Shown here: positions 23,261-62,306 of the stretch, piece after piece
Numbering within the stretch: the first letter of the stretch is position 1
Layout: each line of letters starts with the position of its first letter
Origin: Planctomycetota bacterium
GTDB lineage: Bacteria; Planctomycetota; B15-G4
Direction of reading: 5' to 3'
DNA: 64,000 nt
Assembly: GCA_020638905.1 (NCBI GenBank)
Contig: JACKHP010000002.1
Coordinates: 258,910 to 322,909, forward strand
Made by a program: the position numbers and the translations under genes
The notes under the pieces: model-generated
Told to the model about the DNA's origin: nothing
Databases searched by the model: none
Seen by the model: only the letters and a program-made list of their open reading frames with translations

Positions 23261-24886
<1,626 letters not shown>

Positions 24887-28607: not shown

Positions 28608-31192
28608 CTACGGGACGAACGCCTCGAGCGCGTTGCTCGCCCTGAAGCCCTGAGGTTGCGTCGCGTCGGGCATCCACGCCTGCCAGCAGGTGGGACGGCC
28701 CACGAGATGGGCGGGCCACCCGAACGCGAGGCTCGCCGAGCCCGCGGAATCGAGCGCGACGGGGAGGATGCGCGTCGGCGTCGGGACGAGCGTTCCGCCG
28801 AGGAACGGAGCATCGAGGCGCGACGCGCCCAGCACCAGGAACGCCGTGGTCCCCGGCGTACCGCGTGAGAGCCAGAGATGGGCGGCGTCGCCGGTCAGGC
28901 GCCCGCCGCGGGCCGCGAGGCGCGGGCGCTGGCCGTCGCCGCCGAACGAGCCGCCGAGCCCGACCCAGGGCTGCGTGGGACGGAGTGTGCGCACCTCGAG
29001 CTGACGCTGGACGGCGAACCCGAGCTGGCGGCGCGAGAGGCACGCGAGCTCGCGTCCCGGTGAGTGGCTGAACTCGCCGGCCACGACGCCTTGGTAGAAA
29101 TTCCACTCGGCGCTGTCGATCTCCGGCGATGTGGCCGAGCCGGGCAGGAACGCCGTCGCGGCGCTCCACGCGAGCACGTCCGGCAGGCCGTCACCATCGA
29201 GCTCGTCGACCACGACACCGCGCGCCTCGAAGCCGAGCGGGAACGTGGCCTTCACGACGAAGCCGCCCGCGTCGCCGCCGAGCAGCGTGAGGTCGTCGCC
29301 CGCGGTGATCACTTCGGGCCGTCCGTCACCGTTGCGATCGACCGTGGCGAGCAGGTCGGAGCCGGGTGGCACCGGCGAGTCGATCGGCGCGCCGAAGCCG
29401 CCCGCGCCGTCGCCGAGGCGCAGGCCAGCGTCGCGGCTCCGTCGTCGAGGGTGAGCAGGTCGAGCACGCCGTCGAGATCGAGGTCGTCCAGAACGAGGGC
29501 GACGAGGTTCGCGGGCGTCGCCGGCAGGGCGTCGAAGCTCGGGCCGACGGCGACCTGGAACCCGCCGCCGAAGGAGGTGTACGCCCCCGCGACGAGATCG
29601 AGCGACCCGTCGCCATCCACGTCGCCGAAGTCGAGGAGGTAGTCGGTCGCGTCGAGGGGAGCCACGAGCAGTGGCGCGAAGCTGCCGTCGCCCGCACCCG
29701 CGAGCACTTCGACCGCCGCCGGGTCGGACTGTTCACCCTGGAGCAGGGCGACGAGATCGAGCACGCCGTCGCCCGTCACGTCGACGAGAGCCTGGGCCGT
29801 CGACACGTCCAGTGGAAGCGCGGGCTGCGCGTTGAAGGTCCCGTCGGGCTGCGACAACCAGCGCCAGACCGAGGTGGCGAAGAGGCCAGGGCTCGTCACG
29901 GCGACGGGGTCGTCGAGTCCGTCGCCGTTCAGATCGCCGGCCAGCAGTGTCGCCCCGGACTGGTCGGACGGGATCTGCTCCGCCTCGAGCGGCAGGGCGC
30001 CATCGTCGCCGTCGGGCGGGACGTGGCGCAGGAGCACTCGGTATGGGTCGTTTGCGGCGGCGAGGAGATCGCGCCGAAGGACGACGAGTTCGGCGACACC
30101 GTCGCCGTCCACGTCGGCGCTGCGCGCGGCGGGCAGGGGAAGACCGGACGGCGCGACGCCGGCTACGCTGACCGAGAGGTCCCAAGGCTCGAAGGCGGCG
30201 CCGCCCACGCCGCGCAGGTACACCGTCGCGCCGGGCGCCACCAGCTGCACGTCGGGCAGGCCGTCAGCGGTGGCGTCGCCGACAAACACGAACCCGCCCT
30301 TCGAGGCATCGTCGGACGAGAGACCCGGCGCGAGAAGCGCGATCGGATCGGGCTCGAGCGAGCCGTTGCCGGCGAACACACCCACCGTCGTCGTGAAGCC
30401 CAGGAACACCGAGCCGGTGTTCCAGCCGACGACGAGGTCGACGTGATCGTCGTCCGTGACCTCGGCGGCAGCCAGGCCGCACACCCGCGCGTTGCCGGTG
30501 GGTGACGACCATTCGGGCGTGAACCTGCCCGCGCCGTCGCCTCCCAGGACGAAGACCTCTTTGAGCGTCCCCAGCACGACGTCGAGGGCACCGTCCTCGT
30601 CGAGGTCGACGAGCACCGGCCTGACGTCCGCGAGGACGGCCGACGGGTCGGGAAGAGAGCCTAGGCTCGGCCCGAACGTACCGTCGCCCACCCCGAGGAA
30701 CGCCTCGAGCCGGGGACCGATCACCCCGTTGGGATGGGCCAGCAGCAGGTCGACGTGCCCGTCGCCGTCGAGGTCGCCCACCGCGAGCGTGTTCGACTGC
30801 GGCTCCGCGAAGAAAGCCGGTTGCGGCGCAAGCGAGCCGTCGCCGGCGCCGAGCAGCACCTGCACCTCGCCCGTGACCACGGCGGTGACGACGACGTCGA
30901 GTCGTCCGTCGCCGTCGGCATCGAGACCCTCGACGTGCGCGGGCGCGAACGCCAGGTCGACGCTCGCGACCTGCGTCCCGTCGCCGCGGTGGACGACCAC
31001 ACGTCGCGAGCCCCCCAGGACCACGACGATCTCGGGGACACCGTCGCCTTCGAGATCGACGGTGGCGAGGTCCTTGGCGTCGGCGTCGACGACGAAGCTC
31101 GCGTGACCGAGGAGGGGATGATCTACGGCCTGCGACCGCGCGACGGATGACACGAGCACGACGCTGACCAGGACGGCGATGACGCACTTCAT
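28608..31192 (-). pseudogene. secreted FG-GAP/VCBS-repeat protein with a shared C-terminal module; apparent 1-nt frameshift near 29421-29428 (or assembly error)
   Basis: Signal peptide MKCVIAVLVSVVLVSSVARSQA. Many DxDGDGxxDxxV repeats. The N-terminal frame (ORF 29309..31192) degenerates after ..LLTLDDGAATLA. The repeat continues (LRLGDGAGGFGAPIDSPVPPGSDLLATVDRNGDGRPEV..) in the frame of ORF 28608..29372. Inserting one base restores a single 861-aa reading frame. Confidence 0.65.
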
Positions 31193-31422: not shown

Positions 31423-32970
31423 TCAGATGTAGCGGCTGACCGGGCCCATCGAGCGGCGGATGAGATCGAACGCCTGGAACTCGACGGGCGCCTTCCACAG
31501 GCGGCGACGCAGGCGCACGCCGGCCGACTTGCGCAGCAGCAGCGAGATCGGTCCCTTGCCGCCGGCGATGCCGTCGAACCAGGGCGCCATCTGCGTGAAG
31601 CGCGACCAGACCTTCTGCACCTCGGCCGGGATCGGCCCCCACCACGAGTTGAACTTGTAGTCGAAGAAGCGGCCCCACTGCTCGAAGTTCTCGGGCACGG
31701 GATAGCCGTTGTCGTCGATCGACGGCTGCCAGAACTCGCTGCCGGGGATCGGCCGGTACGGGAAGACCTCGACCGAGCAGCTCGGATACTTGGTCTTCAT
31801 CTCGGCGGCCTGGTGGATCGTGTCGTACATCGACTCGACCGGTTCACCGGGGTAGCCGATGATGTACGTGAGACCCGACTTGATGTCGAGCTGGTGCATG
31901 CGCGACATGGCCTCGTCGGTCATGCCTTCCTGGATGCGCTTGCGGATGAGCTGCTGCGTCTCCCAGGTGGCGGCCTCGGCGCCGAACCACATGAGGTGGT
32001 TGCCGGAACGCTTCATGAGATGCAGCGTGTCCCAGTCGTACTGGGTGATCTGCTTGATCTCGATCGTGCCGTTCCAGTTGATGTTCAGGCCCTTGTCGAG
32101 CAGCGCCTGGCAGAAGTCGACCATGCGCTTCTTGCTCACGCCGAAGTTGGCGTCCTGGAAGCGCAGCACGTCGAAGGGATCCTTGTCGTGGATCACCTTG
32201 AGGCGGTCGACGAGCACGTTCGCGTCGAGCGCGAGCCAGCGGCGTCCGGCGATCTCGGGGCTGCAGCAGAACGCGCACGGCTCGGGGCAGCCGAACGACG
32301 AGAAGTAGCTGAAGCCGCGGAACGGGCGGCCCTGCAGGTGGTGCGGCGGCGGCAGCCTGTTGCGCACGCGGTTGCCGAACTGCGCGGTGCGCTTCTGGAG
32401 CGCGTAGTACTTCTGCACGTCGATCAGGTGGAAGGACGGCTCGGGCAGCTTGTCGAGGTGCACGGCCTCGCGGTGCGGCGTCCAGAACACGGCGCCGTCC
32501 TTCTTGATCACGAGGCCTTCGACGGCAGACAGGTCGGCGCCGCGGCCCTCGGACTTCCAGGCGTCGAGCACGTCGACGAAGGCCAGCTCGCCCTGCCCGT
32601 GCACGACCGCGTCGCAGATGTCGCTCGCGAGGTACAGCTCGGGGATCGCCGACGGGAACCATCCGCCCCACACGATCGGCATCTTCGGGAAGCGCTCGCG
32701 CACCGCCATCGCGACCTTCGCGCCGTCCCAGACCTGGTAGCCGAGGATGCACGAGCTGCCGAACGCCATCGCGCCCTCGCACGCCGCGAGCACCTGCTCG
32801 AGGTAGTCGGGCTCGGTCATCGCGTCGATGATCACGACCTCGTAGCCGGCCAGCTCGGCGCCCGGCGCGATGTGCACGAGTTCGAGCGGCAGCAGGTCGG
32901 CCGAAGGCAGGTCGCCGATCTCGGGATCGACGCGCGACGGCAGGAAGAGGACGACTTTCGGCTTGTTCAC
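31423..32970 (-). CDS. B12-binding-domain radical SAM protein (class B rSAM)
   Basis: The N-terminal block VVLFLPS...GYEVVIIDA resembles a cobalamin-binding Rossmann domain. SSFGCPEPCAFCCS provides the CX3CX2C cluster. GTG start at 32970. Confidence 0.88.
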   Translation of the reverse strand: MNKPKVVLFLPSRVDPEIGDLPSADLLPLELVHIAPGAELAGYEVVIIDAMTEPDYLEQVLAACEGAMAFGSSCILGYQVWDGAKVAMAVRERFPKMPIVWGGWFPSAIPELYLASDICDAVVHGQGELAFVDVLDAWKSEGRGADLSAVEGLVIKKDGAVFWTPHREAVHLDKLPEPSFHLIDVQKYYALQKRTAQFGNRVRNRLPPPHHLQGRPFRGFSYFSSFGCPEPCAFCCSPEIAGRRWLALDANVLVDRLKVIHDKDPFDVLRFQDANFGVSKKRMVDFCQALLDKGLNINWNGTIEIKQITQYDWDTLHLMKRSGNHLMWFGAEAATWETQQLIRKRIQEGMTDEAMSRMHQLDIKSGLTYIIGYPGEPVESMYDTIHQAAEMKTKYPSCSVEVFPYRPIPGSEFWQPSIDDNGYPVPENFEQWGRFFDYKFNSWWGPIPAEVQKVWSRFTQMAPWFDGIAGGKGPISLLLRKSAGVRLRRRLWKAPVEFQAFDLIRRSMGPVSRYI

Positions 32971-33010: not shown

Positions 33011-33271
33011 TCAGCTCGGCGGGTCGCCCAACGCGGGCTCGCGGTTCCCCGACAGGATCGCGGCGACCTCGCCGTCCTCGGGGAAACGCTTCACCTGGCG
33101 CTTGCTGAAGATGAGCTTGCCGTTCTTCACCACCTCGAAGACGCCGCCGTCGCTGGGGACCAGCCGCAGCTCCTCGATCGCGCGCTTGTGCTTCTTGAGC
33201 AGCTCCTCCGCCAGACCGACGGCTCGAGGCTCGTAGTTTCACACCGCGCAGTAGGTGATCTCGATCTTCAC
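33011..33271 (-). CDS. SelW/Rdx-family selenoprotein (CxxU redox motif, in-frame TGA at 33239-33241)
   Basis: AGGAG lies 7 nt before GTG 33271. Translation: VKIEITYCAV-U-NYEPRAVGLAEELLKKHKRAIEELRLVPSDGGVFEVVKNGKLIFSKRQVKRFPEDGEVAAILSGNREPALGDPPS, with stop at 33011-33013. The blocks IxYC..(C/U), L.P...GG.FEV and FP match the Rdx fold pattern. The gene is absent from the ORF track because the TGA splits it. Confidence 0.7.
33205..33229 (-). promoter_or_regulatory. candidate bacterial SECIS hairpin
   Basis: RNA CCUCGAGCC-GUCGGUCU-GGCGGAGG starts 10 nt after the UGA. It has 3-bp and 4-bp helices separated by a small internal loop, and an 8-nt apical loop containing GGUCU (compare the GGUC apical element of E. 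coli fdhF SECIS, from memory). Confidence 0.35.
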
Positions 33272-33490
33272 ACGGGCGCTCCTGGGGGGGACGAAGGGCA
33301 GGTCATCTTATGCCGCTGCGCACGATCCCGCCACTCGGGCGAGGCGGTGCGCCGCCGCACGCGGGGGCGAGGACCGCGGGACGGACCGTCCCCCGCAGCG
33401 CTATCGGCCGCGGCGCGCGTGCCGGTGAAGCCCGATCGGAGGACCTGGGATGGTCCGTCGGGCGATCTCTTGCCTCGCGGATCGGGTGCG

Positions 33491-33610
33491 CGAAGCCGAA
33501 GCCGAAGCCGAAGCCGAAGCCGAAGCCGAAGCCGAAGCCGAAGCCGAAGCCGAAGCCGAAGCCGAAGCCGAAGCCGAAGCCGAAGCCGAAGCCGAAGCCG
33601 AAGCCGAAGC
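33491..33610. repeat. perfect hexanucleotide microsatellite (CGAAGC)x20
   Basis: 120 nt of uninterrupted cgaagc units, read directly from the sequence. Intergenic: downstream of the 33633..34262 gene and about 220 nt upstream of the selenoprotein start. Confidence 0.97.
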
Positions 33611-33632
33611 GCGCGGCTGCGGACGCCTCGCT

Positions 33633-34262
33633 TCAGACCCCGCGCGGCAGGACGTGGATCGCGACCACCGCGCCGGCCGTCCAGAGCACGGCGAGGAGCG
33701 CCTCGCGCAGTCCCTGGCGACGCAGGTCGGCGCGCGTCCAGCCCTTGTGGCGGGCGAGGGCGACGCGGATGTGCCAGGTGCGCCAGACGAAGAACGGCGT
33801 GAGCAGGATGCCGAGCAGCCAGCCCTCGCGGGCCGTGCCGCCGCCGGCGCAGGCGGCCGAAGGCGCGGCCACGACGAGCGCCGCCACCGCGAAGCACAGG
33901 GCGATCGGCGACATGAAGCCGTCGCGCTGCGCGAACCAGACCGCGGCGCCCGCGGGGAACGCGGCCACGAGCGCGTAGGCGAAGAAGTTCGGATCGCCTC
34001 CCGAGCGCAGCGCGAGCAACGGCGCGCCGGCCGCGAGCAGCAGTCCCCACGCGGCGCGCCGACGCCACGCCGGCCGCGGGTGCAGCGCGCCCGCGCTCGC
34101 GAGCAGGAAGATGCCCGCGTAGCCGAGTCCCGCGAAGAGCGCGGGGACGAAGCCTTGTCCCGCCACCGAGAGCGCGCCGGCCAGGATCGAGACCACGAGG
34201 TAGACCCACGCGCCGTGGGCCTTGGCCGGGTCGGGCATGGGACGGGAGAGCAGCGCGGACAT
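33633..34262 (-). CDS. polytopic membrane protein, YwiC-like
   Basis: 209 aa with about 6 hydrophobic helices. The N-terminal AKAHGAWVYLVVSILAG resembles the HGAW start of YwiC-like proteins (family assignment from memory). Confidence 0.5.
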   Translation of the reverse strand: MSALLSRPMPDPAKAHGAWVYLVVSILAGALSVAGQGFVPALFAGLGYAGIFLLASAGALHPRPAWRRRAAWGLLLAAGAPLLALRSGGDPNFFAYALVAAFPAGAAVWFAQRDGFMSPIALCFAVAALVVAAPSAACAGGGTAREGWLLGILLTPFFVWRTWHIRVALARHKGWTRADLRRQGLREALLAVLWTAGAVVAIHVLPRGV

Positions 34263-34329
34263 GCCGCGTATCGTCGCGCTCGGCGCGGAGCGAGGCCAGC
34301 CTCGTCCGGTGCCAGGCGTCAGGCCCGCG

Positions 34330-34692
34330 TCAGCCGACGAGTTCGCGCACGGTGTCGAGCAGCGTGTGGGCGTCGAACGGCTTGGGCAGCACGCGGGTCG
34401 CCCCCAGGACCGCGGCCATCTCGAGGTAGTGACCGCCCGAAGCGTGCGGGCTGCCGCTCACCGCGATGATGCGCACCGACGGCCGGGCCGCGACCAGCTT
34501 TCGGATGAGTTCGATGCCTTCGACGTCGGGCATGACGAGATCGCAGACCACGAGGTCGGGTGAGACCTCGCGGAAGCGCTCGAAGCCCAGTCGTCCGTCG
34601 CGCGCCTCGTGGACCTCGTAGGACGACTCGAGCACGCGTCGCATCGAACGGCGCGCGTCGTCGTCGTCGTCCACGAGCAAGATCGTCTTCAT
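34330..34692 (-). CDS. stand-alone response-regulator receiver protein
   Basis: MKTILLVDDDDD.., VVCDLVMPDVEG, IIAVSG and LPKPF. GGAGG lies 6 nt before ATG 34692. Confidence 0.88.
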   Translation of the reverse strand: MKTILLVDDDDDARRSMRRVLESSYEVHEARDGRLGFERFREVSPDLVVCDLVMPDVEGIELIRKLVAARPSVRIIAVSGSPHASGGHYLEMAAVLGATRVLPKPFDAHTLLDTVRELVG

Positions 34693-34857
34693 GCCTCGCC
34701 TCCACACGGAGTATCGACTCACCGCGCTGCGCTTCAAGCGTCGGTCGCGTGGGTTGACCGCAGTGATTCCAGAACCCGCGATCACGTGGAGACGCCCTTG
34801 CAGGCGAACGCCCACGGGTGTCTGCTGGTCTCCCGAGATCGGAACGGGAGCCTCCGG

Positions 34858-36525
34858 ATGTCCCCGGACGAGTCCTCCAACCTGCCGTGGATCGTACGGT
34901 CACGACGCCGCCTCGCGCTCGTGCTGCTGGTCGCGCTCGCGCTGCCCGTGGGCACGTTCACCGCGGCCGTCGAGATCCAGGCGCACGACACGCTCGAGGC
35001 CCAGGCCGTCGACGCCAACGGCAACTCGGCCCGGCTCGCGGCCGAGGTCGTCGACGCGCTCTTCGAGGGATTTCAGCGCTTCGTGGAGTCGCAGGCCGCG
35101 AGAGAGGCGCTGCACGGCGCGCTGCAGGCCGGCGACGCCGACGCCGTGCGCGAACTGCTGCACGCCTTCGTGGAGACGAACCCGGCCTTCGACCGCGTCT
35201 TCGTCACGTCCCCCGAGGGCGTCGAGCTCTACGACTGGCCGCACGACCCCCAGGTCATCGGCAAGAGCTTCGCCGACCGCGACTGGTACCGGGGCGTGTC
35301 GTCCCGCGGCGCGACCTACGTGTCCGAGGTCTACCGGCGCGCTGCCGCTCCGCGTTGGGACATCATCGCGGTGACGACGCCGATCGTCGGCGACGACGGC
35401 CTGCTCGGCTACCTCGTCGCGCAGTACACGATGCACGAACTCGCGCAGCGCCTCGCCGACAGCGCGCCGGGCGTGGACGGCGCAATCACGTTGGTCGACC
35501 AGCACGGGCACGCCGCCGTCGCGCGCGAGCGCTTCGACGAGGGTGACACGATCCATCCGCTGCCGGACGCGCTCGCGACGCGGCTGCTCTCGGGAGAGCA
35601 GGGCTCGTTCACCGACGCAGACCCCGCCGACGGACGCGAGCGCTTCGTCGGCTACGCGCCCGTGGAGTCGCTCGGCTGGGCGGTCATGGCCGCCCAGCCG
35701 GTCGACGTCGTGCTCGCGCCGGCCTACGCGCTGAAACGCGCGATCCTCACCATGGCCGTGCCGTGCGCGGCGCTCGTGTTCGTCGTCGCGTTCCTCGCCT
35801 TCGCGCACGTGCGTCGGCACCACATGGCCGCGCTCGCGCTCCAGGACCTCAAGGACCGCCTGACCGGCATGCTGGTCCACGACCTGCGCAGCCCGCTCAC
35901 CACGACGCGGCTCACGCTCGACATGCTGGCCGACGATCCGCAGCTCTCTTCCGACGCGCACGAGCAGTTGCGGCAGGCCGACGGGTCGTTGCAGCGTGTG
36001 CTCGCGCTCACCGACAACCTCGTCGACGTGATGCGCATGGAGGCCGGCGCGCTCGAGCTCCACCGCACGTCGATCGACGTGGCAGCCCTGGCGCGGCGCA
36101 CGGTCGACGCGTTCCGTCCGCTGGCGATGGCCGGGAACGTCGACCTCGGTGCGTCGGCGCCCTCGGCCCCGTACGAAGCCGAGGTCGACGGCTCGCTCGT
36201 GGCGCGCGTGCTCGAGAACCTCGTCTCGAACGCGATCAAGCACACGCCTCCCGGCGGACGGGTCGAGGTGCGAGTCGCGCCCCGTCCCGCGGGCGAATGC
36301 GAACTCGCCGTGACCGACACCGGCGAAGGCATCCCACCCGAGGAGATCCCGCGGTTGTTCCAGCGCTTCGGACGCGCGCGCGGACAGACCTTCCGCCAGG
36401 CGCGCGACGCGGGGCTCGGCCTCGTGTTCTGCCGCATGGCCGTCGAACTCCACGGCGGGACGATCGACGTGCGCAGCGCGCCGCGCGAGGGGAGCACGTT
36501 CCGGGTGCTGCTGCCCGTGCGCTGA
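34858..36525 (+). CDS. sensor histidine kinase (periplasmic Cache-like sensor, HisKA, HATPase_c)
   Basis: ATG 34858. TM helix LALVLLVALALPVG. H-box LVHDLRSPLTT, N-box LVSNAIKHTP, then DTGEGIPPEE and GLGLVFCR. Divergent from the receiver gene at 34692. Confidence 0.88.
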   Translation: MSPDESSNLPWIVRSRRRLALVLLVALALPVGTFTAAVEIQAHDTLEAQAVDANGNSARLAAEVVDALFEGFQRFVESQAAREALHGALQAGDADAVRELLHAFVETNPAFDRVFVTSPEGVELYDWPHDPQVIGKSFADRDWYRGVSSRGATYVSEVYRRAAAPRWDIIAVTTPIVGDDGLLGYLVAQYTMHELAQRLADSAPGVDGAITLVDQHGHAAVARERFDEGDTIHPLPDALATRLLSGEQGSFTDADPADGRERFVGYAPVESLGWAVMAAQPVDVVLAPAYALKRAILTMAVPCAALVFVVAFLAFAHVRRHHMAALALQDLKDRLTGMLVHDLRSPLTTTRLTLDMLADDPQLSSDAHEQLRQADGSLQRVLALTDNLVDVMRMEAGALELHRTSIDVAALARRTVDAFRPLAMAGNVDLGASAPSAPYEAEVDGSLVARVLENLVSNAIKHTPPGGRVEVRVAPRPAGECELAVTDTGEGIPPEEIPRLFQRFGRARGQTFRQARDAGLGLVFCRMAVELHGGTIDVRSAPREGSTFRVLLPVR

Positions 36526-36584
36526 GGGCCCGGCGTCGGGCACGATCACGATCGGCTCCCCCGGAGCCTGCGAACGCCGGGCCC
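36526..36584. terminator. nested GC-rich hairpin directly after the kinase stop, between convergent genes
   Basis: Outer stem GGGCCCGGCGT/ACGCCGGGCCC (36526-36536 pairs with 36574-36584). Inner stem GGCTCC/GGAGCC (36554-36568). Confidence 0.4.
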
Positions 36585-36611
36585 GCGTGTCGACCGCGTC
36601 CCGCCGACGCG

Positions 36612-37694
36612 TCAAGGGAACGCGACGGGGAAGTGGTTGTCCTCGTAGGTGTTGTCGCCGGCGCCGGACGTGTCGAACAGGTCGAAGAAGACGCTCTTCG
36701 TGGCGCGGTTGCCGATCAGCACGTGCCCCACGCCCTCGACCTCGAAGCCGTCGTCGCCGGCGTGCGAGACGCGGTTGTCCTCGACGAGGCAGCCGTCGCA
36801 CTCGAGGTCGATGCCGTCGCTGCCGGGGGACGTGATGCGGTTGCGCAGGAAGTTGCAGCCGTCGGCCTGGCTGAGCAGGCCGTCGAGTCCGGGCTTCACG
36901 AAGCGGTTGTCCTCGAACGTGTGCGCCGAACCCGCGGCGGCGGCCGCATGGCCGGACGCGTATCGCACGACGTTGCGCTCGAAGTGCTGTCCCGTGCCGT
37001 AGGCGAGCAGTCCGTCGTCGCCGCACGCGAGCACGCGGTTGCGCACGAAGACGTCGTCGGACCCCTGTCCCACCGAGTCGACCTGCAGGCCGTCGTCGCC
37101 GCAGGCGCGCACCGTCGTGCGCTCGACGCGGTTGCCGTCGCCGTGCACGATCACGCCGTCCCCGGCGGGGTGGTCGACGAGGCAGCGCAGCACGAGCGAG
37201 TCGTGCACCGCGGGACCGAGTCCGGCCGCGAGACTGATGCCGTCGGCGCCCGCGTCGTCGACACGGCAGCGCTCGATCACGACGCCCGTGGCGTCGTCGA
37301 CGCGGATGCCGTCGTCGCCGCTGCGCGTCACCCGGCAGCGGAAGAGCGTCACGTCGCTGCAGCCGTCGACGAGCACGCCGCGCAGGCCGGCGTCCTCGAC
37401 GCGCAGCTTCTCGAGCCGCACGCCCGTCGAGTCGACGACGACGATGCCGTCGTCGAACGCCCCGGGACGCACGACGACCTTGCCCTTGGCGCGCAGCGTG
37501 ACGTCGACGAGGCCGTCGAGCACGAGCGACTCGACGTAGGTCCCCGACTTGACCACGATCGTGGTGCCGGGCGTGGCGAGATCGATCGCCGCCTGGATCG
37601 TGGGCATGCCGGGCCCCGGCACGACGAGGATCTGCGATGCGTCCGGCGCTGCAGCCGGGAGGACGGAGAGCAGGGCGAGGGCGAGGACGTTCAC
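36612..37694 (-). CDS. secreted right-handed parallel beta-helix repeat protein (pectin-lyase fold, NosD-like)
   Basis: GTG 37694. Signal VNVLALALLSVLPAAAP. About 12 repeats of the type ..N.V..C.V...GDDGI.V... Confidence 0.75.
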   Translation of the reverse strand: MNVLALALLSVLPAAAPDASQILVVPGPGMPTIQAAIDLATPGTTIVVKSGTYVESLVLDGLVDVTLRAKGKVVVRPGAFDDGIVVVDSTGVRLEKLRVEDAGLRGVLVDGCSDVTLFRCRVTRSGDDGIRVDDATGVVIERCRVDDAGADGISLAAGLGPAVHDSLVLRCLVDHPAGDGVIVHGDGNRVERTTVRACGDDGLQVDSVGQGSDDVFVRNRVLACGDDGLLAYGTGQHFERNVVRYASGHAAAAAGSAHTFEDNRFVKPGLDGLLSQADGCNFLRNRITSPGSDGIDLECDGCLVEDNRVSHAGDDGFEVEGVGHVLIGNRATKSVFFDLFDTSGAGDNTYEDNHFPVAFP

Positions 37695-37931
37695 GGTCGG
37701 ACTCCGGATGCGGGGCGGGTGGGAGGCGAAGGCGTGCAGATCCGGATCGGCGGCGGAAGGTCTCACGTCCACCGCGGGCCTTCGGGTCGCGTGGACGCCG
37801 ACGTCCTCGCGCGGTGCGCGCCTTGCGCCTCGCGCGGCTGGACCGGATGATCCGCGGTTCCGCCCGCGAGGCGTCGCCGCGCCATCCGCCGGACGCCGCG
37901 CGTCGCCGTCCCCCACCCCGCTCGAACCGCC

Positions 37932-39767
37932 ATGATCTCCGTCCAGGGCCTCAGCAAGTCGTACGGCGAGCAGGTGCTCTTCGACGACGCGTCGTTCGTG
38001 ATGACGCCCGGCGAGCGGCTGGGACTCATCGGCCGCAACGGCTACGGCAAGTCGACGCTGTTCCGCATCCTGCTCGGCGAGGAGCACGAGGACGACGGCA
38101 GCATCGTGCTGCCCAAGCAGTACAGGATCGGGCATCTCAGCCAGCACCTGCGCTTCGACGAGCCGACCATCCTCGACGAGGTCTGCAAGGGGCTGAAGCA
38201 CCGTGAGCACGAGGCGTACCGCGCCGAAGCCGCGCTCATGGGCCTGGGCTTCACGCGCGACGACCTGCTGCGCCACGCGCACCACTTCTCGGGCGGGTAC
38301 CAGATCCGCGTCAACCTCGCGCGCGTGCTCGTCGAGGAGCCGAACCTGCTGCTGCTCGACGAGCCCACGAACTACCTCGACATCACCTCGGTGCGCTGGC
38401 TCACGCGCTTCCTGCGCGGCTGGCCGAACGAGATGATCCTGATCACCCACGACCGGGCCTTCATGGACTCGGTCTGCACGCACACGATGCTCGTGCACCG
38501 CAGCAAGCTGCGGCGCATGGAGGGCACGGTCGACAAGCTGCTCGAACAGGTCGCGACCGAAGAAGAGGTGTACGAGAACACGCGCCAGAACGAGGAGAAG
38601 AAGCGCAGGCAAGACGAACGCTTCATCGAACGCTTCCGCGCCAAGGCCTCGAAGGCGACGCTCGTCAAGTCGCGCCAGAAGCTGCTCGACAAGCGCGGCC
38701 GCATGGACGAGCTCGAGACCGAGCGCGACCTCGACTTCCGCTTCAACCCCGCGCCGTTCCACGCGACGGTGATGATGTCCGTCGACGACCTCGCGTTCGG
38801 CTTCGACGACGGTCCGCCGCTCATGGAGGGGCTCTCGTTCGCGCTCGAGAAGGGCGACCGCGTCGCGATCATCGGTCCCAACGGCAAGGGCAAGACGACG
38901 CTGCTCAACCTGCTCGCGGGCGAGCTGCAGCCGCGCGCCGGCACGATCAAGCTCAACCCGAACACGCAGATCGCGTACTTCGGCCAGACGAACATCGACC
39001 GGCTGCATCCGCAGAACACGGTCGAGGAGGAGATCCTGGCCGTGCAGCCCGACAACTCGCGCACCGTCGTGCGCACGCTGGCGGGCATGCTCATGTTCTC
39101 GGGCGACGCGGCGCTGAAGACGGTCTCGGTGCTGTCCGGCGGCGAACGCAGCCGCGTGCTGCTGGGCAAGCTGCTGGTCAGTCCCGCGAACCTGCTGCTG
39201 CTCGACGAGCCCACGAACCACCTCGACATGCCGTCGATCGAGGCGCTGCTCGACGCGGTCGACGCCTTCCCCGGCGCGGTGCTGCTCGTGACGCACAGCG
39301 AGATGATCCTCGAGCGGCTCGCCACGCGGCTGGTCGTGTTCGACGGCGGCAAGGCCACGCTCTTCGAGAGCGGCTACCGCGACTTCCTCGAGCGCGTCGG
39401 CTGGCGGAGCGAGTCCGACGAGGCGCCGCGCAAGCCGTCCGGCGGGCCGAAGCCCGTGGGAAAAGACCTGCGCAAGGCGCGCGCCGAGATCGTGGCCGCG
39501 CGCACCAAGGCCACCGCGGCGCTGAAGACGAAGGTCGACGTGATCGAGGCACGCATCGAGCGCCTCGAGCGCCAGATCGACGAACTCGACGAGGAGATGT
39601 CCGAGGCCGCCGCCGAGGGCCGCGCCGGCGACATCGGCAAGCTGGCCGCCGACGCGAAGAAGAAGCGCCTCGCCCTCGACGCCGACTGGGAACTGCTCGA
39701 GCGCGCGCAGGACGAACTCGACGTCGCGCGCGCCGAGTGGGACATCAAGCTGGGCGAGCTCGAGTAG
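37932..39767 (+). CDS. ABC-F family ATPase (two ABC cassettes, no TM domain)
   Basis: Walker A motifs GRNGYGKST and GPNGKGKTT. Signatures FSGGYQIR and LSGGERSR. Charged linker and C-terminal coiled coil. Confidence 0.92.
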   Translation: MISVQGLSKSYGEQVLFDDASFVMTPGERLGLIGRNGYGKSTLFRILLGEEHEDDGSIVLPKQYRIGHLSQHLRFDEPTILDEVCKGLKHREHEAYRAEAALMGLGFTRDDLLRHAHHFSGGYQIRVNLARVLVEEPNLLLLDEPTNYLDITSVRWLTRFLRGWPNEMILITHDRAFMDSVCTHTMLVHRSKLRRMEGTVDKLLEQVATEEEVYENTRQNEEKKRRQDERFIERFRAKASKATLVKSRQKLLDKRGRMDELETERDLDFRFNPAPFHATVMMSVDDLAFGFDDGPPLMEGLSFALEKGDRVAIIGPNGKGKTTLLNLLAGELQPRAGTIKLNPNTQIAYFGQTNIDRLHPQNTVEEEILAVQPDNSRTVVRTLAGMLMFSGDAALKTVSVLSGGERSRVLLGKLLVSPANLLLLDEPTNHLDMPSIEALLDAVDAFPGAVLLVTHSEMILERLATRLVVFDGGKATLFESGYRDFLERVGWRSESDEAPRKPSGGPKPVGKDLRKARAEIVAARTKATAALKTKVDVIEARIERLERQIDELDEEMSEAAAEGRAGDIGKLAADAKKKRLALDADWELLERAQDELDVARAEWDIKLGELE

Positions 39768-39787
39768 GCCGGCGCCGGACCCGCCGG

Positions 39788-40027
39788 TCAGCGCGCGCCG
39801 CGTTCCCGCCGGCGCAGGTCGGCGAGGTAGAGCCGCTCGACCTTGGTGCGCGCCCACGGCGTCCGGCGCAGGAACTTGAGCGTCGAGGCGATGCTCGGGT
39901 CGACCTTGAAGCAGCGGATGTCGATGCGCGCGGCGAGGTCGTCCCAGCCGCGGCGCTCGACGAGCTCGGTCACGAGCGCCTCGAGCGTTATGCCGTGCAG
40001 CGGGTTCTTCGGTTGCTCGTCGCTCAT
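39788..40027 (-). CDS. VF530/DUF2132-family small protein
   Basis: NPLHGITLEALVTELVERRGWDDLAARIDIRCFKVDPSIASTLKFLRRTPWARTKVERLYL matches my memory of the DUF2132 pattern. Lies 7 nt downstream of dbpA. Confidence 0.7.
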   Translation of the reverse strand: MSDEQPKNPLHGITLEALVTELVERRGWDDLAARIDIRCFKVDPSIASTLKFLRRTPWARTKVERLYLADLRRRERGAR

Positions 40028-40034
40028 GCGGACC

Positions 40035-41456
<1,422 letters not shown>

Positions 41457-41458
41457 CG

Positions 41459-59839: not shown

Positions 59840-60979
59840 TCAGCCGTCGCCTCCTCCGTCCGCGGCGGGTGCGCCGCCGACCGCGGGCGATCCGACGAGC
59901 AGGCCGGCCAGCTCGGCCAGGTCGATCACGAGCGGCACGCGCGGGTCGTTGCTGTTGAGGGTGACCTTCGGGACGTTCAGGTTGCCGGCCGCCTCGAGCG
60001 CGAGCCAGATGCGTCCGCCGCGGGTGTTCAGGATCTCGTTGCGCAACTGGTCGCGCAGCGCCTGGGCGCGGTCGATGGCGAGCTGTCCCTCGGCCTCGAG
60101 CGAGACCTTCTCGGCGTCGCCCTCGGCCTTGACCCGGCTCTCGTAGGTCATCGTCTCGGCCCGGATGCCCGCGATGGTGACCTCGTACTCGCTCTCGAGC
60201 TCCTGGAGCTTCTTGTCCCACTGCGCGCTCTTGGCCTTGATCGCCGCGCCGATCTGCTGCTCGATCGAGTTGGTGACCTGCTCCTGCTCGGCCTGCAGCG
60301 CCAGCGCCCCGTCGAGCAGCGCCTGCTGCGTGAGCAGCTGCTTGGCCTGCAGCTTCGCCTCGTAGTCCGGCGGGAACGCCACACGCCGGATGAGCAGCGA
60401 CTCGGCCACGACGTGGAACCCGGCCAGCTCGTCGTTCAGCATCGGCAGCACCTCGGCGGTGCGCTTGAGGCGCTTGTCGGTGTCCTGCAGGTCCTCGCTG
60501 CTGAGCTGGCTCAGCTGGGCGCGCAGCACGTTCTCGACGGTCGACTTGACGCGCTCGTAGTAGCTGGAGCGCAGTCCGAGGTCGACGATCATCCAGGCCT
60601 CGCCCTCCTTGATGCGGAACGGCACCGTCACGTCGATCGTCGTCTGGTTGTTGTCCTTCGTGCGCAGCTCCATCGGCGGATAGAAGCGCGTCGTCTCGGC
60701 ACCGCGCTCGGTCAGGCTGCCGATCACGTCGCCTCCCGAGACGGGCTTCGACTCGCAGAAGTGCAGGAAGTGCGTGCGCCGCGGGAGGAAGTTCCAGCGG
60801 TGGACGCCGGTGATGCCCCAGTAGGTGCCGGTGGTGAAGTCGTGCTTCGTGAGGCCTCCGCCCCCGAGCAGCGCCTGGCGCACGCCGATGTCCATCGGCT
60901 TGACGCGCACGAAGAGCGCGACCGAGAGCACGGCGAACGCGACCACCAGTCCGGCGACGACTCCGATCGTGCGCGACAC
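59840..60979 (-). CDS. SPFH/band-7 domain membrane protein
   Basis: GTG 60979 lies 1 nt after the upstream stop. N-terminal TM helix. SPFH core (..TKDNNQTTIDVTVPFRI..) followed by a long coiled coil. Confidence 0.85.
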   Translation of the reverse strand: MSRTIGVVAGLVVAFAVLSVALFVRVKPMDIGVRQALLGGGGLTKHDFTTGTYWGITGVHRWNFLPRRTHFLHFCESKPVSGGDVIGSLTERGAETTRFYPPMELRTKDNNQTTIDVTVPFRIKEGEAWMIVDLGLRSSYYERVKSTVENVLRAQLSQLSSEDLQDTDKRLKRTAEVLPMLNDELAGFHVVAESLLIRRVAFPPDYEAKLQAKQLLTQQALLDGALALQAEQEQVTNSIEQQIGAAIKAKSAQWDKKLQELESEYEVTIAGIRAETMTYESRVKAEGDAEKVSLEAEGQLAIDRAQALRDQLRNEILNTRGGRIWLALEAAGNLNVPKVTLNSNDPRVPLVIDLAELAGLLVGSPAVGGAPAADGGGDG

Positions 60980-60980
60980 G

Positions 60981-62126
60981 TCAGTTCCCTCCCGATCCGG
61001 CGGCGGCGGCGGCCGCGGTCTCGACCTCGAGGCGCGCGGGCGTGGCGTCCCGCGTGTACGGGACGAGCGTGAACTCGACGTCGCCGAGCCGCTCGGCCAG
61101 CCGCTCGCGCACCAGGACCTCTCCCTGCGCCTCGAGCGCCTCGGTGATGGCCTTCAGTCCCTCGGACTCCTTGAGCGCCTTCTCGCGAGCGGCGCGCGCC
61201 TGTTCGGTCATCGCCGCGAGCGACGCCTGCCCCTCGCCCACGAGCCGCGTCTTGTACGCGTCGGCCGAGCGCTGGACGCGCACCTGGTCCTGCTCGGCGG
61301 CGATCCGCTCGGCCTCGAGCGTGCCCTTGAGCGTCTCGTACGCGACGGCCTTCTCCGACTCGATCTCGGCCAGCCGCCGCTCGCGCTCCTGGACGAGCTG
61401 CTCGGCGCGCGCCTTGATGCGCTCGACCTCCTGGTTGGCCACCTTGCGATCCTCGATCGCCTGCTCGTACTCCGGGTCGAACTTCGGCTTGGGCGTGATG
61501 ATCTGGACGACGTCGATCCCGTGCGGGAGGAGGGCATCATTGAGCCGCTGCCGCGCCGCGAGCGTGGCCTCGTTGTAGTTCGTGGGATCGGCCACCTCGG
61601 ACGCCGAGAAGCGGCCGAACTCGTCGCGCAGGATCGAGCGCGCGAAGGCGCGCACCCAGTCCTGCTTGAACGACTCGCTGCTGCCCGAGTCGCTCAGGAC
61701 GAGGTCGCTCTCCCCCGGCTGGATCTCGTACTGGATGCGGACCTCGTCGAACCAGAAGTTGCTGCCGTCGTTGGCACGCACCGTGAGCTTCGACACGTGG
61801 TTCGAGTCGATGTCGCGATCGCCCGACATGACGAACTCCTGGATGCTCTTGTCGAACAGGAAGGCCTGTTCGACGAACGGGGCGAAGAACCGGTACCCGG
61901 GGTCGCGCACGATCTCCGCGTGGCCCGAGAGGTAGTTCACGACGACCGCGACCTGCGTGTCCTTGACCTCGACGAAACCGCCCTGCCCGGTGACCATCAC
62001 GATCACGAAGCCCGCCAGCAGGACGACGACGGCGCAGCCCATGAGCACGCGCGACCTGCGCCCGGGGCCACCGCCGGGTGGACGGCTCCTCGCGAACTCG
62101 CGCTCGAAGTCCTCGGACGTGGTCAT
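60981..62126 (-). CDS. SPFH/band-7 domain membrane protein (paralogue, upstream partner)
   Basis: ATG 62126 follows GGGAG. TM helix LMGCAVVVLLAGFVIVMV. SPFH core (..TVRANDGSNFWFDEVRIQYEI..) and coiled coil. Confidence 0.85.
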   Translation of the reverse strand: MTTSEDFEREFARSRPPGGGPGRRSRVLMGCAVVVLLAGFVIVMVTGQGGFVEVKDTQVAVVVNYLSGHAEIVRDPGYRFFAPFVEQAFLFDKSIQEFVMSGDRDIDSNHVSKLTVRANDGSNFWFDEVRIQYEIQPGESDLVLSDSGSSESFKQDWVRAFARSILRDEFGRFSASEVADPTNYNEATLAARQRLNDALLPHGIDVVQIITPKPKFDPEYEQAIEDRKVANQEVERIKARAEQLVQERERRLAEIESEKAVAYETLKGTLEAERIAAEQDQVRVQRSADAYKTRLVGEGQASLAAMTEQARAAREKALKESEGLKAITEALEAQGEVLVRERLAERLGDVEFTLVPYTRDATPARLEVETAAAAAAGSGGN

Positions 62127-62306
62127 GGCTCGCTCCCGTGCAGGGTGTCCAGCGCGGGACGTCGACGACGCGCTGCCGGCACGCCCCCCCGCGCGGCGCC
62201 CTTGTTGTGGATCGCCTCGGACGATTGCACCAAGCCCGGACGCCGTGTGCACGCGCGTTCCGCGCGCCGCGTCGAAGCTCCCCGGCCTGCGAGCGCCGAG
62301 CGACCG

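Follow-up and report, generated by a model that had tools for sequence, protein, structure and literature searches.

Positions 33271 to 33011 on the minus strand of the window (the whole 64-kb stretch of DNA analysed here) very probably hold a genuine gene for a SelW-like selenoprotein, in which an in-frame TGA would encode selenocysteine (Sec); with it, we infer the capacity of the genome to decode Sec. The gene is a wrongly annotated member of a well-known family. Its coding sequence (33011..33271, minus strand) begins with GTG, ends with TGA and comprises 86 sense codons, of which codon 11 is the Sec codon. In the sequence itself, the GTG start codon lies at 33271-33269 on the minus strand, and a Shine-Dalgarno-like AGGAG (33279..33283, minus strand) is separated from it by a 7-nt spacer. 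Translation from this GTG gives V-K-I-E-I-T-Y-C-A-V, followed by a TGA (33239..33241, minus strand) that occupies the second redox position of a C8-A-V-U11 motif. After this TGA the frame continues for 75 further sense codons and ends at a second TGA, 33013-33011. The ribosome-binding site, the N-terminal peptide and the continuation of the frame past the first TGA had all been proposed in a sequence-only reading of this DNA, and sequence and translation confirmed each of them. The same reading had described the gene as missing from the six-frame list of open reading frames; at this locus that list indeed holds only overlapping off-frame ORFs, besides one 40-aa fragment of the true frame.

Because the GC content of the window is 72%, GC at the third codon position (GC3) marks real reading frames. 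GC3 of the SelW-like gene reached 1.0 over the 10 codons that precede the TGA and 0.95 over the 75 that follow it, and GC at the second position was about 0.3-0.4 on either side. This coding pattern was absent from the 361-nt stretch upstream of the start codon. When all six frames of the 64 kb were scanned for in-frame TGA codons, with strict codon bias required on both sides, the SelW-like site was the only candidate, and the scan revealed no other selenoprotein gene in the window. The open frame through the TGA at 33241-33239 is real and goes beyond a chance pattern. TGA also serves as the stop codon of 20 of the 22 confident genes in the window, which shows that it is not reassigned and that the code is standard.

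Profile searches were run with the TGA read as cysteine. The translated product scored 71.9 bits against Pfam Rdx (PF10262; cut-off 22.6, E = 4.9e-20), 58.4 bits against NCBIfam TIGR02174 (CXXU_selWTH; cut-off 34.2) and 95.4 bits against NF041051 (SelT/SelW/SelH family (seleno)protein; cut-off 88). In the Pfam alignment, residues 2-72 of the protein pair with positions 1-71 of the 74 in the profile, and the match crosses the TGA. With three curated cut-offs cleared and a match that spans the TGA, the assignment to the Rdx (SelW/SelT/SelH) group made from the letters of the DNA was borne out. The CxxU motif directly follows the N-terminal beta-strand (I-T-Y-C-A-V-U-N-Y). Among PDB entries, residues 2-74 are covered by alignments to the Rdx structures 2fa8, 3dex and 2p0g, with E values of about 1e-9 (8.7e-10), and the CxxC of the solved bacterial Cys-type Rdx proteins falls on C8-x-x-U11; mouse selenoprotein W (2npb) was a weaker match. 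The product predicted from these comparisons is an 86-residue SelW-like (Rdx family) protein with the active-site motif Cys8-Ala-Val-Sec11, and homology to the solved Rdx structures suggests a thioredoxin-like fold. SelW-like CxxU proteins form a major bacterial selenoprotein family (PMC2398784, PMC1088965, PMC13188914, PMC1794560); in ocean metagenomes no other prokaryotic selenoprotein family is as abundant (PMC2398784). According to a genome survey, the ancestral members of the family probably carried Sec (PMC1794560). The role of the bacterial members has been called unclear since 2005 (PMC1088965, PMC2398784), and a 2026 review places it among the families 'predicted with high confidence' (PMC13188914). 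No bacterial SelW-like protein is known from biochemical work to contain selenium.

The public record of this gene is a 67-aa 'selenoprotein' that starts after the TGA (GenBank MCB9896840.1 and MCB9532563.1), and the other protein-database matches to the SelW-like protein proved to be likewise truncated gene calls. At the DNA level, the missing N-terminus is present in loci L002-L005, with TGA at the same codon. TGA also occupies the Sec codon in four GTDB genomes (L006-L009), and two Verrucomicrobiota genomes (L010, L011) carry TGC, encoding cysteine. We then scanned metagenomes with the pattern TAYTGYGCNGTNNNNAAYTAYGARCC (YCAV-NNN-NYEP), in which the critical codon is left free, and obtained at least 120 stretches. 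Among the matches listed, the Sec codon was TGA in 118 of 120 and TGC in the remaining 2 (L047, L075). The motifs xIxIxYCAV and NYEPxA are conserved on either side of the TGA, and the codons upstream of it show protein-level conservation with synonymous changes among relatives. In 95 of 111 distinct Sec-type sequences, a start codon precedes the tyrosine by exactly 6 codons. It had been proposed to look at whether homologues carry Sec or Cys at the aligned position and whether conservation reaches across the TGA; both hold, and the N-terminal flank is conserved, so that the homologues do not align only downstream of the TGA. The earlier view that the gene is not a new family, yet easily missed, fits the 67-aa truncation in GenBank, and the same annotation failure has been described in Epsilonproteobacteria, where SelW genes have often been shortened in their GenBank entries or have escaped annotation (PMC4607533).

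These comparisons bear on two simpler readings of the TGA. A TGC or TGT codon could have been misread in sequencing or assembly, in which case the protein would be a Cys-type Rdx. Nothing specific speaks for such an error other than that the source is a metagenome-assembled genome, and two separately deposited metagenome-assembled genomes (those of MCB9896840.1 and MCB9532563.1) encode an identical protein. With the same codon being TGA in 118 of the 120 independent metagenome contigs listed and in the four GTDB genomes, we give an error virtually no chance. Alternatively, the TGA could be a true stop, with the 67-residue GenBank protein starting downstream as the product and the 10 upstream codons part of no functional protein. 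This would agree with the public annotation (MCB9896840.1, 67 aa), and the Sec machinery of the source genome is something that we only infer. The 67-aa product, however, would be missing strand beta-1 together with the entire CxxU/CxxC motif, by which the family is defined; the Pfam match begins at residue 2 of the longer protein. The GC3 of 1.0 in the upstream codons, their conservation with synonymous changes and the start position fixed in 95 of 111 relatives also speak against this reading, and a conserved hairpin after a real stop would be left without an explanation. Taken together, the conservation of the TGA, the fixed start and the use of TGA as an ordinary stop in this window argue strongly against both a sequencing error and a variant code, and they make a true stop very unlikely. 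A coding sequence that runs through the TGA is the reading we retain.

One homologue departs from this pattern. Locus L001, whose protein is 72% identical, has GGA (Gly) at the Sec codon (265-267), all others having TGA or TGC. Its downstream hairpin is identical to that of the window, and among the protein-database entries of this group it alone was called at full length. A misread single base may account for the GGA, or Sec may recently have been replaced by Gly, which would leave the protein inactive. A further protein-database entry, P0005 (MCB9532561.1, H6700_12410), is an 84-aa 'hypothetical protein' on a 19-kb contig of the sister assembly. It contains stretches identical to the SelW-like protein of the window, broken by apparent frameshifts, and its accession is two numbers away from that of the truncated 'selenoprotein' of the same assembly. 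Rather than a second gene, this entry is probably the error-rich end of a duplicate contig.

Downstream of the TGA, the RNA can fold into a stem-loop with the properties of a bacterial SECIS element (bSECIS). The core (33208..33222, minus strand) consists of a 5' arm CCGUC (33222-33218), a loop GGUCU (33217-33213) and a 3' arm GGCGG (33212-33208). Counted from the U of the UGA, this upper hairpin comprises nucleotides 20-34. The full minimum-free-energy fold (33197..33232, minus strand) adds a lower stem, in which GAGCCUC is paired with GAG..GCUC, and the window shares this fold with the relatives nearest to it. The lower stem begins 6 nt from the UGA, the conserved upper stem 16 nt and the apical loop 21 nt. 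The sequence-only reading had correctly noted a stem-loop with a GGUCU apical loop, whereas the start that it gave, 10 nt after the UGA, is somewhat off. The published bSECIS model, as quoted in PMC13188914, allows 3-9 nt in the apical loop, 4-16 bp in the upper stem, 16-37 nt between UGA and loop and a minimum free energy of at most -7.5 kcal/mol, and it places a G in the first two loop positions, usually as N1-G-[G/U]-N-N2. The window hairpin agrees with all of these, having a 5-nt loop (GGUCU), a 5-bp stem, a spacing of 21 nt and a folding energy of -15.8 kcal/mol (66 nt starting at the UGA).

The fold was no more stable than dinucleotide shuffles of the same sequence (z = +1.2 and +1.7), and support for the hairpin therefore comes from its conservation and not from thermodynamics. 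Rfam gave no match in the whole window at gathering thresholds, nor around the gene at E values up to 10. We tested covariation in an ungapped alignment of 106 distinct sequences. The five core pairs (20-34 to 24-30) are paired in 80-100% of them, and the distance of the hairpin from the UGA is fixed. Double-sided compensatory cells numbered 28, compared with 7.2 in shuffles, and none of 500 shuffles reached 28. The covariation score was 0.235, against at most 0.097 when partner columns were slid. The earlier proposal to check the hairpin as a bSECIS was in this way answered positively, by agreement with the published model and by covariation.

Codon usage within the hairpin revealed the level at which it is constrained. 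The loop codon encodes Gly in 43 sequences, Ser in 54 and Arg in 9, and its middle base G26 is invariant (106/106). The following U27 occurs in 92 of the 106, and wherever the loop codon is serine it is AGY. At the valine codon of the stem, 78 of 83 sequences have GUC, and at the leucine codon 98 of 101 have NUG. As a control, a proline codon that falls just beyond the stem varies freely, with all four synonymous forms in use. Judged from these alignments, the constraint on the hairpin acts on the RNA and not on the protein.

The window itself carries no genes for the Sec pathway. Looking for tRNA-Sec, we found no tRNA of any kind in the 64 kb, and no SelA, SelB or SelD domain was detected among the about 30 window proteins scanned, which represent chromosomal housekeeping functions (ArgG, CtaA/CtaB, GroEL, LigA, QueA, PdxS, urocanase and others). 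In other subclades of the SelW-like family, among the matches listed, the stop codon of the SelW-like gene is followed, 7-176 nt later, by a tRNA-Sec gene of the same strand in at least 17 loci (L014, L023, L031, L038, L046, L060, L067, L070, L076, L077, L091, L104, L106, L110, L112, L119 and L131). Where the contigs are long enough (L060, L067, L077 and L112), the tRNA-Sec is followed by genes with SelD, SelA and SelB signature motifs, which indicates that the selenoprotein gene heads a Sec-machinery cluster in those loci. Gene order in these subclades supports a tie of the SelW-like family to the Sec machinery at the level of the family. The place of these subclades at the head of selC-selA-selB clusters is a by-product of modest value.

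Two further alternatives concern how the UGA is decoded. It might be read as an amino acid other than Sec (Cys, Trp or Gly), through near-cognate read-through or a variant genetic code. The full-length call at L001 has Gly at this site and would seem to favour such decoding; the DNA of L001, however, truly reads GGA. Standard termination at TGA in 20 of the 22 confident window genes, a hairpin that fits the SelB-dependent bSECIS model and the adjacency of the gene to tRNA-Sec, selA and selB in other subclades leave decoding as a non-Sec residue exceedingly improbable. The gene could also be an intact Sec-type allele in a genome whose Sec machinery has been lost or is not expressed, that is, a recent relic yielding only a 10-residue peptide. 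No sel genes lie within the 64-kb window, one relative (L001) carries GGA at the site, and SelW-like selenoproteins have been lost in sister lineages according to a published genome survey (PMC1794560), all of which would be compatible with a relic. However, the frame, the start codon, the hairpin and the downstream coding signal are all intact, and every close relative examined, at 65-79% protein identity, has the same intact SelW-like architecture. Intact architecture at such divergence indicates long-term purifying selection, unlike what is seen in a dead gene, and we regard a relic as highly unlikely.

We therefore favour a functional Sec codon and, following the established bacterial Sec pathway, propose the following mechanism. 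With the ribosome at UGA-11, the hairpin, 16-34 nt further along the mRNA, would present its G26-U27 apical loop to SelB-GTP-Sec-tRNA(Sec). Sec would then be inserted at UGA-11 in competition with release factor 2. The product would cycle between a selenolate/thiol form and a Cys8-Sec11 selenenylsulfide, and would thus act as a small redox protein. Its cellular role may be tied to the radical SAM enzyme encoded downstream. The deposited 67-aa 'selenoprotein' should accordingly be corrected to 86 aa with Sec at position 11, and one would expect the source organism to depend on selenium and to possess selA, selB, selC and selD.

The gene downstream of the SelW-like gene (31423..32970, minus strand) encodes a B12-binding radical SAM enzyme of 515 aa, with Pfam B12-binding and Radical_SAM domains and a CxxxCxxC motif at residue 228. 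It has the same orientation as the SelW-like gene and starts 40 nt after it; a terminator-like site was not detected on the minus strand between the two. The arrangement suggests that the two genes are probably co-transcribed. All 15 matches of the enzyme to NCBIfam equivalogs were far under the cut-off, the best being BchE with 96.6 bits against 481.35, and its sequence matches in the PDB were weak. Assignment to a named family (BchE, HpnJ, PhpK, HpnR, ladderane-lipid rSAM and others) was rejected, scores being below every equivalog cut-off.

We asked how consistently the two genes occur together. Among the loci examined, SelW is immediately followed by an orthologue of the radical SAM enzyme in 29 of 29 loci of the closest SelW group. 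These orthologues are 74-93% identical to the window enzyme (75-82% over full length) and begin 20-130 nt after SelW. No radical SAM orthologue was present in any of the 71 other loci examined that have at least 600 nt of downstream sequence. Expressed by similarity, of 24 distinct SelW sequences at least 65% identical to that of the window, 23 are linked to the enzyme, L082 being the exception. The linked loci are L001-L009, L018, L027, L028, L033, L035, L041, L044, L054, L055, L059, L063, L079, L086, L092, L094, L100, L113, L123, L126, L128 and L137-L139. The converse look-up, starting from two orthologous enzymes (three loci), revealed a TGA-containing SelW just upstream each time; this upstream gene is uncalled in L139 and truncated in L137 and L138.

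The extent of this pairing was delimited in two respects. An Rdx neighbour as a general feature of the relatives of the enzyme was rejected: around paralogues at 49-69% identity (L132-L136, L140) there was no Rdx gene within about 6 kb, even when reading through TGA. A pairing that spans phyla was rejected as well, the Planctomycetota-labelled loci being one lineage. Many linked loci share with the window QueA-LigA upstream and GroES-GroEL downstream, and the GroEL of these syntenic loci is 85-90% identical to that of the window (23261-24886, minus strand) in most cases and 78% in L008. This shared context and GroEL identity indicate that those linked loci belong to one lineage. Five distinct linked sequences (L027, L028, L035, L086 and L094) have no LigA upstream, which shows that the pair persists in a second genomic context.

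In the literature searched, we found no link of Rdx or SelW proteins to radical SAM enzymes. Conserved adjacency raises the possibility, which we consider rather doubtful, that the SelW-like selenoprotein of this group is a dedicated partner of the downstream B12-binding radical SAM enzyme, either as a redox helper or as a substrate. If true, such a partnership would provide the first functional handle on bacterial SelW-like proteins. The pair is a testable lead on the family, of modest value.

Several observations concern the wider surroundings. LigA lies directly upstream of the SelW-like gene in L006-L009, L041, L044 and L137-L139. Unlike these close relatives, the window has about 8 kb (33272-41458) inserted between LigA and the SelW-like gene; this segment encodes a 209-aa protein without family match, a response regulator, a Cache-domain histidine kinase and an ABC-F ATPase. 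On the other side, genes for FG-GAP repeat proteins (28608-31192, minus strand) adjoin the radical SAM gene. FG-GAP proteins also adjoin distant paralogues of the enzyme (L132, 9224-11149; L133, 7757-8818 and 10917-12422), and pairs of Band_7 genes recur (L132, 3920-5835; window, 59840-62252). This recurrence may reflect a wider conserved neighbourhood of the radical SAM enzyme family. The window is also rich in sulfatase, FGE-sulfatase and FG-GAP genes. The metagenome-assembled genomes of MCB9896840.1 and MCB9532563.1 are labelled Myxococcales bacterium in GenBank, and the syntenic relatives are labelled Planctomycetota; the Myxococcales label may be wrong for the source assembly.

For the field, the gene offers nothing new in kind, as the abundance of SelW-like proteins and the problem of their annotation are already documented. 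Like other bacterial SelW-like selenoproteins (PF10262, TIGR02174, NF041051), its product has the same domain, a CxxU motif after the first beta-strand and a length within the usual range of about 70-90 residues. The in-frame UGA and the hairpin within the coding region are likewise shared, as is the tendency of annotation to truncate or miss such genes, and in these respects the window gene is not different in kind.

The closest counterparts with structures are Cys-type Rdx proteins, namely Atu0228 (2fa8), SAV_2001 (3dex) and a Vibrio SelW-related protein (2p0g), which are homologous over residues 2-74. They differ from the window protein in having Cys at the second redox position, within a C-T-Q-C motif, where the window protein has Sec within C-A-V-U, and they are about 20 residues longer.

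For the RNA element, the model of bacterial Sec insertion is the SECIS of Escherichia coli fdhF, a hairpin that lies within the coding sequence shortly after the UGA and presents G and then U in a small apical loop. The window hairpin resembles it in its position downstream of the UGA, in its G-U loop and in a spacing within 16-37 nt (PMC13188914). In contrast to fdhF, the upper stem is only 5-6 bp, there is no sequence similarity outside the loop, and the window hairpin is a predicted SelB site.

The neighbouring enzyme shares with the class B radical SAM enzymes BchE, HpnJ and PhpK an N-terminal B12-binding domain, the radical SAM core and the CxxxCxxC motif, but falls far below the cut-off of every named equivalog. 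What distinguishes the orthologous group of the window (at least 65% identity) from other SelW-like selenoproteins is a short extra C-terminal tail (…RFPEDGEV.AIL.GN..P…) and, in the loci examined, a B12-binding radical SAM gene that always follows.
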